Source of the DNA: Escherichia coli 042
Lineage (GTDB): Bacteria; Pseudomonadota; Gammaproteobacteria; Enterobacterales; Enterobacteriaceae
Reading direction: 5' to 3' (one strand)
Assembly: GCF_000027125.1 (NCBI RefSeq)
Contig: NC_017626.1
DNA: 64,000 nucleotides
Shown here in pieces: positions 33,516-43,072 of the stretch. Made by a program: the position numbers and the translations under genes. The notes below the pieces were generated by a model. That model saw only the letters and a list, made by a program, of their open reading frames with translations. It made no database searches and was not told where the DNA came from. Within the stretch, counting starts at the first letter, position 1; each line of letters begins with the position of its first letter.

Positions 33516-33633
33516 CAAATTACTTATTGAGCGGTGTAAACAACGCCGCTTATTCATTTGATAAATCAAAATTAACCCACATTATTATCTCCAGTATCTA
33601 ATCCTTTCTACAGCTTTCTGGCACAGGACAGCA

Positions 33634-40405: not shown

Positions 40406-41044
40406 TTACATGAAGAATGGCTTATCGCCATCAGTCCCGGGTTGATTGATGCCTATATTCTCACCAATGTGTTTCTCAGGTTTATCGATGATATCTGTAA
40501 TTAATGCTGCGACACTCTTACGTGATACGATCGTACCTTTGAATGGTTCATTGCGTGAGGTAAGCTCATAATCAATAATATCTTCATCAGTCAGCCAGGC
40601 AGGGCGAAGAATTGTATATTCCAGTCCAGAAGCCTCAATTGCATCCGCAGCCCTGCGGAATGGTTTTAGGGGCTCACCAATAACTGCATTATTCCATTCG
40701 CCAAATTTTCCTGGAACTTCATCATAAATACCGAGGGAAAGAACAAAGATCAGACGTTTAACATCACAGGCTTTCATCGCAGCGATCACTGAATTTGCCT
40801 GAATATCTAAATCTTCCCCCGTAAGGTTGGCATACACAACATCCTGTCCCTGCATGGCCTGCTTCAGTGCTGCATGATTCAGTACATCCCCCATAATAAT
40901 CTTGCTATTAGTTGGATAGGGTTTGTGGATTTTTGCTGGCTGACGGGCAAATAAAGTTTGTTTAATGGTTTGTTTATCTGCCAGTTGATTAATCACATGG
41001 CGGGCTATCTGACCGCCAGCACCAAGAATCAGTACATTTTTCAT
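40406..41044 (-). CDS. ymjC: NAD(P)-binding (NmrA/SDR-like) protein, apparently intact
   Basis: 212-aa ORF with N-terminal Rossmann motif (ILGAGGQIARHV); assigned by position between mpaA and ycjY. Confidence 0.7.
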   Translation of the reverse strand: MKNVLILGAGGQIARHVINQLADKQTIKQTLFARQPAKIHKPYPTNSKIIMGDVLNHAALKQAMQGQDVVYANLTGEDLDIQANSVIAAMKACDVKRLIFVLSLGIYDEVPGKFGEWNNAVIGEPLKPFRRAADAIEASGLEYTILRPAWLTDEDIIDYELTSRNEPFKGTIVSRKSVAALITDIIDKPEKHIGENIGINQPGTDGDKPFFM

Positions 41045-41114: not shown

Positions 41115-42047
41115 TTACAGAGTTTCCTCAAAGAACGGCGCTAATACTGAAATTGCTTCAGCCACATAGACTTTGCCGTCATAAAGAACCATATGGTTTG
41201 CGCCTTCAACAATGTGATAGCGTTTATCCTGGCTTGATGCTCGATCGTACAGGTCGTCACTCATCCATTTGCTCCCTGCCTGGCTGCCCGCCACAATCTG
41301 TATCGGCTGAGTCAGGTACACTTCCGCCATATGGTAAGCATCATAGGTAATAATCTGGTTAAGGCTGCGCAAAGTAGCGTAACCCGGTGCTGTTGGATAC
41401 TGCGCGCGAGGGGTGTGGTAATACTCCCAGGCCTGACGCAGTTCTTCGTTCGGCGCATCGGACTCCTTCATTGGTGCCAGTGGCATGGTGGCGTATTCTC
41501 CGCTGCTAATATCGCTGGTTCGGGCGTTTGAACCCGCGTCAACGTATGGTAGGGCATCAATAGATTTCACATTGTTTTCCCAACCATTACGGAACATCGA
41601 ACCAATATTGACCGCACTAACAGTACCGATGGCCTTGATGCGGCGATCCTGAATTGCAGCATTGGCTGTATATCCTGCACCGGCACAAATTCCCATCGCA
41701 CCAATTCGGCTATTGTCGACATAAGAAAGCGTTGTCAGATAATCAATCACGGCACTGACGTCTTCAGTACGAATGTATGGGTTTTCTAACTGACGCGGCT
41801 CGCCGCCGCTTTCACCTTGATAAGATGCGTCATAAGCAATAGTGACAAATCCCTTTTCCGCCAGTTTTTCGGCATAGGTTCCAGCCGTTTGCTCTTTAAC
41901 GCCCCCACCTGGGTGAGATACCACAATTGCCGGATACTGACGGGTTTCATCAAATTTTGGAGGGAAATAGATCACTGCAGACAAAGAGATGGTTGGATTA
42001 TTGCTGTTAGTGAAGCTGACTTTATTATTCATCATTCCGTTCCTCAT
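41115..42047 (-). CDS. ycjY: Alpha/beta hydrolase
   Basis: 310-aa ORF (true start may be a few codons downstream); nucleophile-elbow-like GICAGAG. Confidence 0.85.
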   Translation of the reverse strand: MRNGMMNNKVSFTNSNNPTISLSAVIYFPPKFDETRQYPAIVVSHPGGGVKEQTAGTYAEKLAEKGFVTIAYDASYQGESGGEPRQLENPYIRTEDVSAVIDYLTTLSYVDNSRIGAMGICAGAGYTANAAIQDRRIKAIGTVSAVNIGSMFRNGWENNVKSIDALPYVDAGSNARTSDISSGEYATMPLAPMKESDAPNEELRQAWEYYHTPRAQYPTAPGYATLRSLNQIITYDAYHMAEVYLTQPIQIVAGSQAGSKWMSDDLYDRASSQDKRYHIVEGANHMVLYDGKVYVAEAISVLAPFFEETL

Positions 42048-42172
42048 GGAGTTGTCGGTTCGTTTTAACGGTTGGTGATATCACTATAGATATTGATCAT
42101 TAAGTTGATTAGACCCAAAATCATGATTAGACCTATCATTTAAATGATTAATAGATTGTATGGAGATACTGA

Positions 42173-43072
42173 ATGAAGCGTGAAGAAATCGCTGATCTGA
42201 TGGCGTTTGTCGTCGTTGCAGAGGAGCGTAGCTTCACTCGCGCAGCAGCCCGCCTGAGCATGGCGCAGTCAGCTTTAAGCCAGATAGTGCGCCGTATAGA
42301 AGAACGATTGGGATTGCGGCTTCTGACACGAACCACGCGCAGCGTTGTACCCACTGAAGCGGGCGAGCATCTTTTGTCTGTTCTTGGCCCTATGTTGCAT
42401 GACATAGATTCTGCCCTGACATCCCTGAGCGATCTGCAGAACCGCCCATCCGGGACAATACGTATTACTACTGTAGAACATGCAGCAAAAACGATATTGT
42501 TACCAGCTATGCGCACATTCCTGAAATCGCATCCTGAAATTGATATCCAGCTTACCATTGATTATGGTTTGACCGATGTCGTTTCTGAACGTTTTGATGC
42601 AGGCGTCCGTCTGGGTGGGGAGATGGATAAAGATATGATCGCCATTCGAATCGGGCCAGATATACCAATGGCTATTGTTGGCTCACCGGATTATTTTTCT
42701 CGTCGAAGTGCTCCAACGTCAGTGTCACAATTAATAGATCATCAGGCAATTAATTTGTATCTTCCCACATCGGGTACAGCAAATCGCTGGAGATTAATAC
42801 GCGGTGGACGTGAAGTTCGTGTTCGCATGGAAGGTCAGCTTTTACTGAATACGATAGACCTGATCATTGATGCTGCAATTGATGGGCATGGATTGGCGTA
42901 TCTACCTTATGATCAGGTTGAGCGGGCTATTAAAGAAAAAAAACTGATACGTGTTTTGGATAAATTCACACCAGATTTACCCGGTTATCACCTGTACTAT
43001 CCACACCGTCGACATGCTGGCTCGGCATTCTCATTATTTATAGATAGGCTGAAGTATAAAGGTGCTGTTTAG
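42173..43072 (+). CDS. pgrR: LysR-type regulator PgrR (YcjZ)
   Basis: 299 aa; LysR HTH (FTRAAARLSMAQSALSQIVRRIE), divergent from ycjY. Confidence 0.9.
   Translation: MKREEIADLMAFVVVAEERSFTRAAARLSMAQSALSQIVRRIEERLGLRLLTRTTRSVVPTEAGEHLLSVLGPMLHDIDSALTSLSDLQNRPSGTIRITTVEHAAKTILLPAMRTFLKSHPEIDIQLTIDYGLTDVVSERFDAGVRLGGEMDKDMIAIRIGPDIPMAIVGSPDYFSRRSAPTSVSQLIDHQAINLYLPTSGTANRWRLIRGGREVRVRMEGQLLLNTIDLIIDAAIDGHGLAYLPYDQVERAIKEKKLIRVLDKFTPDLPGYHLYYPHRRHAGSAFSLFIDRLKYKGAV

Follow-up and report, generated by a model that had tools for sequence, protein, structure and literature searches.

The window, that is, the whole 64-kb stretch of DNA analyzed here, contains a divergent gene pair whose members are separated by a short shared spacer.

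41115–42035, minus strand: ycjY, an alpha/beta hydrolase gene and the first gene of the divergent target operon (RefSeq start; Pfam alpha/beta-hydrolase families)
42173–43072, plus strand: pgrR (ycjZ), a LysR-type regulator gene (RefSeq annotation; Pfam HTH_1 and LysR_substrate)

The stretch showed 100% identity to E. coli strain 7/2 and was found in 5226 of 5426 complete genomes. The PgrR protein matched PF00126 (N-terminal HTH_1, E = 1.6e-21) and PF03466 (LysR substrate-binding domain, E = 1.5e-35). The spacer, with a G+C content of 34%, is 137 bp long (42036–42172) when measured from the RefSeq start of ycjY at 42035; the original prediction had given it about 125 bp, a length that holds when the start of the longest ORF, at 42047, is taken (125 bp). 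The K-12 spacer differs from that of the window by a single base, at 42159, and the divergent regulator/hydrolase layout is repeated in 24 other loci that we examined. Between ycjY and mpaA, the minus strand of the window carries an intact 212-aa ORF for an NAD(P)-binding SDR (40406–41044; PF13460, E = 3e-54); in K-12, this position holds only ymjC/ymjD fragments, or what is annotated as a partial 'NAD-dependent dehydratase' pseudogene.

The repeated and inverted elements of the spacer are as follows.

42106–42115, plus strand: copy 1 of a direct repeat, TGATTAGACC, overlapping the predicted −35 elements of both promoters
42107–42114: GATTAGAC, the core of copy 1, proposed as a secondary, activation-site-like PgrR contact
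42124–42133, plus strand: copy 2 of the direct repeat, TGATTAGACC, within the predicted pgrR promoter spacer and directly left of the dyad
42135–42148, either strand: a perfect 14-bp dyad, ATCATTTAAATGAT, proposed as the primary (recognition) PgrR site
42096–42109, either strand: a second ATCA-N6-TGAT element, ATCATTAAGTTGAT, an imperfect dyad centered 39 bp from the main dyad

A pattern search found exactly two occurrences of TGATTAGACC in the 64-kb window. Both of the exact 10-mers that had been claimed are therefore present, and copy 2 lies where it had been placed; copy 1, at 42106–42115, begins one base to the left of its claimed position, and the spacing from start to start is 18 bp rather than 17 bp. 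The 12-mer palindrome reported at 42136–42147, tcatttaaatga, was confirmed and extends to the perfect 14-mer ATCATTTAAATGAT, which is unique in the window (0.01 expected) and ends 24 nt upstream of the pgrR ATG at 42173, in agreement with the approximately 25 bp given before. On the MG1655 chromosome (U00096.3), the dyad corresponds to 1391953–1391966 and copy 1 to 1391924–1391933. Its description as a T-N11-A-like dyad was not borne out, as the palindrome is ATC-N8-GAT, i.e., T-N10-A and of even length. A search of the spacer for a T-N11-A box (LTTR box) yielded no candidate with more than 3 of 6 complementary pairs.

As a chance test for the repeat and the palindrome, we shuffled the 137-bp spacer 5000 times with dinucleotides preserved. 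Direct repeats of 10 nt or more arose in 1.2% of the shuffles and even palindromes of 14 nt or more in 1.4%, and the two features appeared together in none of the 5000. The TGAT/ATCA tetramers number 9 in the spacer as compared with 3.6 expected (P = 0.002). Two ATCA-N6-TGAT arrangements lie in the spacer (starting at 42096 and 42135), and the whole window has six, as compared with 1.29 expected. Copy 1 includes the right arm of ATCATTAAGTTGAT, which accounts for the invariance of that arm; the left arm of ATCATTAAGTTGAT reads only AT(C/T)A in enterics and is missing in alpha-proteobacteria.

The conservation of these elements was examined by phylogenetic footprinting, in an enterobacterial alignment of 11 sequences that included the window, a second Escherichia, Citrobacter, Kluyvera, Pseudocitrobacter, Shimwellia, Serratia and a MAG. 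The non-Escherichia regulators in this alignment showed 85–88% protein identity to PgrR. We found that positions 42083–42152 were almost invariant, and that the flanks (42048–42082 and 42153–42172) had diverged. The dyad was identical in 10 of the 11 sequences, and positions 42106–42112 of copy 1 were invariant. This 70-bp block was also identical in 4476 of 5220 E. coli genomes, with about 14% of them differing somewhere. Among the variants, the E. coli strain EC21Z-083 carries 42112 G>A, a change of an otherwise invariant base of copy 1, and the strain MLI106K3 carries A>T at 42117 together with C>T at 42122, inside the conserved block.

Among the top 120 protein homologues of E. coli PgrR, none fell below 87% identity, which left the comparison without depth; depth was gained from a plasmid tblastn search and from a second search seeded with the Kozakia protein. 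Twelve non-enteric lineages were compared, namely, Rhizobium, Agrobacterium (two), Kozakia, Swingsia, Sphingobium, Sphingopyxis, Caulobacter, Camelimonas, Labrys, a Nitrobacter-like contig and Paraburkholderia; the regulators of the four plasmid loci, for which it was measured, showed 60–74% identity to PgrR. Each of the twelve has its LysR gene divergent from one or two alpha/beta hydrolase genes, in many cases with an SDR gene after them. Anchored on the dyad, 18 representative sequences formed a gapless alignment over about 85 bp. In the 70 nt upstream of the dyad, 31–40 positions matched E. coli at shift 0 (21 in the A. pusense locus, L021), as compared with a mean of about 17.5 at shifts of ±1–12, and in all but one of the 12 non-enteric loci (11 of 12), GATTA[GT] preceded ATCA by exactly 28 bp. 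The block and the consensus elements in the register of the 18 sequences are listed below.

42083–42152, either strand: the 70-bp phylogenetically conserved control block (alignment; E. coli genome survey)
42074–42077: consensus gaTG
42083–42089: consensus A.T.TAG
42099–42101: consensus ATT
42107–42114: consensus GATTAGaC
42119–42121: consensus AAT
42127–42134: consensus TTGG.CcT
42135–42148: consensus ATCA.Tga..TGAT
42149–42152: consensus.AAT

In these 18 lineages of gamma-, alpha- and beta-proteobacteria, the arms ATCA and TGAT of the dyad were invariant and the central 6 bp were variable, reading TTTAAA in most enterics and TGAGG- or TGGAG-like sequences in others. A symmetric T/A to C/G covariation at dyad positions 5 and 10 was considered and dropped, as eight further lineages gave C/A, A/G, T/G and G/G. 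The recognition helix of the regulator, QSALSQIVRR, was invariant or nearly so in every dyad-bearing lineage. In these alignments, the control block travels together with a PgrR-type regulator across three proteobacterial classes. A Gammaproteobacteria MAG (L009, around 2930–2945; regulator 58% identical) has the same divergent hydrolase layout and a −10-like AATCTAG; it has lost the left arm of the dyad, its hydrolase −35 region is covered by another 14-bp palindrome, TTGTTAATTAACAA, and IVRR of its recognition helix is changed to IMQR.

The two copies of the direct repeat fared differently in the footprinting, so that the exact 10-mer pair, taken as a conserved unit, is upheld for copy 1, which is strongly conserved, and not for copy 2, which is weakly conserved. 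Among the loci compared, the exact 10-bp duplication was confined to Escherichia, since copy 2 reads TGATTGGACT in most other enterics. In alpha-proteobacteria, it reads TTATTAGGCC, CGCTTGGCCT or GTCATGGCCC, and only TTRGnC(C)T is kept across lineages. The bases that make the copies equal are Escherichia-specific, i.e., A at 42129 (G in other enterics) and C at 42133 (T in most). Copy 1 coincides with the conserved block GATTAGaC; the block under copy 2 is TTGG.CcT, directly adjoining the dyad, and the two blocks share only TTRGnC. Because the copies fall on different blocks and owe their identity to these two bases, the direct repeat is a degenerate ancestral feature sharpened in one genus, and not the conserved functional unit.

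Parts of the conserved block can be read as promoter elements, and two promoters were predicted.

42110–42139, plus strand: predicted sigma-70 promoter of pgrR, TAGACC-18-TATCAT, scoring 9/12 in a consensus scan, its −10 being the left arm of the dyad
42083–42088, minus strand: predicted −10 element of ycjY, TATAGT, with a predicted +1 near 42076

The A at position 2 of −10 elements is conserved. In the register of the predicted ycjY −10, ACTATAG (CTATAGT on the minus strand) was invariant in enterics, and most of the alpha- and beta-proteobacterial loci carried TAGATT, TACATT, TAAATT or TACCAT, all of which conform to TAnnnT. This pattern would represent the −10 signature of a sigma-70 promoter directed at ycjY. 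A conserved TG at 42076–42077 corresponds to CA at the predicted ycjY +1, 6–7 nt past the −10-like element, and we place the start near 42076 because TAnnnT is conserved and is followed at this distance by the conserved CA. Counted from this predicted start, the dyad center (42141.5) would lie at about −65.5 and GATTAG (center about 42110) at about −34. The two centers are 31 bp apart, which corresponds to three helical turns, and the sequence over the ycjY −35 at GATTAG is a poor one, TAATCA. For pgrR, the 18-bp spacing between TAGACC and TATCAT was kept in all lineages compared, and the predicted start lies near 42146.

The same RpoD promoter, TAGACC-18-TATCAT, has been predicted for pgrR by Shimada et al. 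2014 (PMC3946193), in which the ycjY promoter was predicted elsewhere, as ATGATA-19-TCTAAT. The TCTAAT of that prediction is copy 1 read on the minus strand, and it is less likely to be a sigma-70 −10 than the TATAGT register because it is without the conserved A at position 2. The Cappable-seq and SMRT-Cappable-seq supplements were searched for transcription start sites of pgrR and ycjY, and none was found there. Another promoter-like sequence on the minus strand, TTCACG-18-TACAAT (42184 to 42155, directed toward ycjY and inside the start of pgrR), was rejected, as other genera have not kept it and K-12 has a change in its −10 (42159 T>C). Since parts of the repeats coincide with predicted promoter elements, the conservation of the repeats is in itself no proof of contact by PgrR.

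With regard to PgrR itself, the genomic SELEX record, citing Shimada et al. 2013 (Genes Cells 18:123), gives ycjY/ycjZ as a PgrR target; the regulon listed there comprises ycjG, ycjXF-tyrR and ycjY-ymjDC-mpaA, with PgrR as the repressor of ycjY-ymjDC-mpaA. In the DAP-seq data of the PPTP-seq supplement, PgrR was enriched 5632-fold at the pgrR promoter, as compared with 4413 for LacI at lac in the same table. The RegulonDB evidence paper counts one classical PgrR site, which was recovered by both DAP-seq and gSELEX. PPTP-seq (CRISPRi) and a strain with tunable PgrR showed that PgrR is negatively autoregulated, consistent with the known site on its own promoter. When pgrR was knocked down, the pgrR promoter was significantly upregulated (log2FC 0.97), the ycjY promoter gave small, nonsignificant changes (log2FC 0.60, 0.28 and 0.34) and the ycjX promoter did not respond. 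PgrR has been reported as a repressor only. The suggestion that this spacer is a plausible PgrR operator for both ycjY and pgrR is thus supported at the level of the region by gSELEX, the DAP-seq enrichment, the RegulonDB site and autoregulation. Because the binding of PgrR to the spacer, the repression of ycjY and the autoregulation are published and curated (RegulonDB, EcoCyc), this much is already known.

Taken together, we consider it probable, at roughly two chances in three, that the repeats and the palindrome belong to one bidirectional LysR-type control region of PgrR, with the dyad as the primary and GATTAG as the secondary contact. In this model, PgrR would bind a compact region, 42083–42152, which includes both repeats and the palindrome. 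The dyad ATCA-N6-TGAT (42135–42148) would be the high-affinity recognition site, situated over the predicted −10 and start of pgrR, and PgrR bound to it would occlude RNA polymerase and shut off its own gene. Since the predicted pgrR −10 lies in the left arm of the dyad, such occlusion would fit the measured autorepression. The second pair of DNA-binding domains of the same PgrR tetramer would contact the GATTAGAC core of copy 1, centered 31 bp, or three helical turns, from the dyad center and over the weak −35 region of ycjY. The PgrR-bound state would keep ycjY-ymjDC-mpaA down, and a ligand would relieve the repression or turn it into activation. Copy 2 would be a loosely constrained gap filler beside the dyad, and its exact identity with copy 1 an Escherichia-specific accident or refinement. 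The bases touched by PgrR, both transcription starts and the geometry of the tetramer are what we infer here. Two overlaps weigh against the operator model: GATTAGAC overlaps the predicted pgrR −35, and TATCA is the predicted pgrR −10. Some of the conservation, and the constant distance of 28 bp, could be due to promoter function alone. Also against the model stand the T-N10-A form of the dyad, its lack of clean covariation at positions 5 and 10, the possible translational constraint on its right arm in alpha-proteobacteria, the different ycjY promoter predicted by Shimada et al. 2014 and the small, nonsignificant response of the ycjY promoter to pgrR knock-down.

Almost all of the remaining weight goes to a variant in which the dyad alone is contacted. 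The palindrome by itself would then be the PgrR operator, copy 1 would be the pgrR −35 (TAGACC), copy 2 would be promoter spacer and the identity of the two copies would be coincidental; we regard this as unlikely, yet as deserving a real share of belief. Its strength is that TAGACC-18-TATCAT scores 9/12 and was predicted independently (PMC3946193), that the strict 28-bp spacing from GATTAG to ATCA amounts to the 18-bp spacer between −35 and −10, and that copy 2 is poorly conserved outside Escherichia. However, the best-conserved bases of copy 1, GATTAG, include GAT, which is outside the −35 hexamer, and the ATT at 42099–42101 and the AAT at 42119–42121 are conserved one turn to either side. 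Furthermore, A. pusense has a second true dyad, CTATCATTCCATGATAG, centered at the GATTAG position. The size of LysR-type tetramers, which usually cover 50–60 bp, also counts against contact with the palindrome alone. The operator model with two contacts is preferred over three further explanations as well. It is improbable that the repeats are sigma-E promoter elements, a reading in which GGTCTAATCA on the minus strand contains a GTCTAA-type sigma-E −10. In the sigma-E consensus, about 16 nt separate a GGAACTT-like −35 from a TCTGA/TCTAA −10, and sigma-E −10 elements such as those of rpoE P2 and rpoH P3 resemble TCTAA. This reading would explain the SELEX peak of the RpoE holoenzyme at ycjY/ycjZ (intensity 17.2; RpoH 4.4), and pgrR and ycjY have been termed known RpoE-dependent promoters. 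However, the resolution of SELEX is hundreds of bp, and no GGAACTT-like −35 is present on the minus strand 15–17 nt upstream of either copy, where ATAGGTC and CTATTAA are found. The other enterics have not kept the sole AACTT of E. coli (42108 to 42102).

We see only a very slight chance that the motifs serve another regulator of the host, e.g., UlaR or H-NS, and not PgrR. For UlaR, the ycjY promoter shows a 57.5-fold DAP-seq peak and an LB-specific response (log2FC 2.19), and for H-NS, a knock-down response is on record together with a single line of evidence for binding. The DAP-seq signal of PgrR is, however, about 100-fold stronger than that of UlaR, and the block lies beside the regulator gene in three classes, on plasmids and near IS elements or integrases, with the LysR gene as its only constant partner; across hosts, the LysR protein is the only trans-acting partner that is always with the DNA block. 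UlaR and H-NS may also act at the spacer, though without explaining the cross-class conservation. The idea that the repeat and the palindrome are chance features of AT-rich intergenic DNA could appeal to the 34% G+C content of the spacer and to the occurrence of each feature alone in about 1% of the shuffles. It is effectively refuted by the complete lack of shuffles with both features and by a cross-class conservation that is register-specific.

The operator model with the dyad as primary and GATTAG as secondary contact resembles the canonical LysR-type divergent promoters, such as those of BenM/CatM (ATAC-N7-GTAT), CbnR, AtzR and OccR, in which the regulator is likewise divergent from its target and represses itself. 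Shared as well, given the starts predicted here, would be a strong dyad over the regulator's own promoter and a weaker element about three turns away over the target −35; the recognition and activation sites of LysR-type promoters lie at about −65 and −35, respectively, as compared with the predicted −65.5 and −34 in this spacer. The PgrR dyad, ATC-N8-GAT (T-N10-A), differs in being one bp shorter than the T-N11-A box, the nod box being ATC-N9-GAT. Another difference from the canonical systems is that PgrR has been reported only as a repressor, without a known inducer. The region behaves as a LysR-type divergent operator with most of the defining features, except for a strict T-N11-A box. The operators of AphB and CrgA are of T-N11-A types, unlike ATCA-N6-TGAT. 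These two proteins and 3mz1 are the nearest solved homologues of PgrR; AphB of V. cholerae (PDB 3szp/3t1b) and CrgA of N. meningitidis (3hhg) are full-length LysR-type structures that match PgrR with E = 1e-30, and they are distant paralogues.

As compared with the documented PgrR (YcjZ) site in the ycjY-pgrR spacer, the regulator, the spacer and the targets are the same, and the published site may coincide with the dyad, the repeats or both. The cross-class conservation of that site and its dyad/GATTAG anatomy were not met in the literature that could be checked. The ungapped cross-class comparison is new here, and the base-level operator model (ATCA-N6-TGAT with GATTAG 28 bp upstream) may be new. 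The discovery value is small, since the literature and RegulonDB already cover PgrR with its target spacer, its repression of ycjY and its autoregulation; the practical gain is an operator model that is precise and testable and gives a predicted start for each of the two promoters.

In a set of the other loci (L016 and L019–L030), the unit consists of a LysR gene divergent from one or two YcjY-type alpha/beta hydrolase genes, with or without an SDR gene. Transposases (IS21, IS110 or ISNCY) or integrases are its frequent neighbors, and some of the units are on plasmids. The genes mpaA, ycjG and mppA are outside the conserved cassette, and the second hydrolase of the Klebsiella plasmid version has been lost in E. 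coli. We tentatively raise the possibility, which we hold to be rather doubtful, that PgrR and its operator form a small, horizontally mobile cassette (LysR, one or two hydrolases and an SDR) moving among alpha-, beta- and gamma-proteobacteria on plasmids or islands. If so, the E. coli cassette would have landed beside the murein-peptide genes mpaA, ycjG and mppA, the ancestral signal or substrate of PgrR would be a small molecule handled by the hydrolase/SDR pair, and its name as a 'peptidoglycan recycling regulator' would stem from read-through into mpaA peculiar to E. coli. The exact duplication of the 10-mer, confined to Escherichia, could then be a local re-tuning of the activation-site region. 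It may also be new that the constant companion of the regulator is the cassette, and not the murein genes. With hydrolase and SDR genes rather than murein genes as the constant partners, the search for a PgrR ligand could be redirected.

The position of the dyad relative to the start codon varied among the lineages. In the alpha-proteobacteria (L016, L019–L021, L023, L024 and L026–L030), the dyad center is Shine-Dalgarno-like (GAGG/GGAG) and the regulator ATG follows 2 nt after TGAT, so that the operator overlaps the translation start, or else the mRNA is nearly leaderless. Because of this Shine-Dalgarno-like center and the nearby ATG, the right arm of the dyad may be doubly constrained in alpha-proteobacteria, i.e., also for translation. 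The enterics and Paraburkholderia have 24–30 extra nt between the dyad and the ATG, with a Shine-Dalgarno sequence of their own, and the dyad is conserved there too. An RNA element was also considered for the spacer, which gave no Rfam match.

The dyad arms, abutting in reversed order, form a perfect 10-bp palindrome, GTGATATCAC (42075–42084), at the start predicted for ycjY; GATTAG is 31 bp and the main dyad 62 bp away from its center. E. coli and Serratia PL17 carry this palindrome, the Citrobacter clade and the alpha-proteobacteria do not, and it could be a lineage-specific third PgrR site.

The upstream regions of the other listed PgrR targets in the window, ycjG and ycjX, contain no TGATTAGACC within 2 mismatches and no ATCA-N6-TGAT. 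The region upstream of ycjX bears only a weak resemblance to the motif; a near-palindrome there, TTTGATAAATCAAA (33557–33570), carries TGAT/ATCA arms in inverted order, and a 7-mer at 33597–33603, TCTAATC, is the reverse complement of the TGATTAGACC core.
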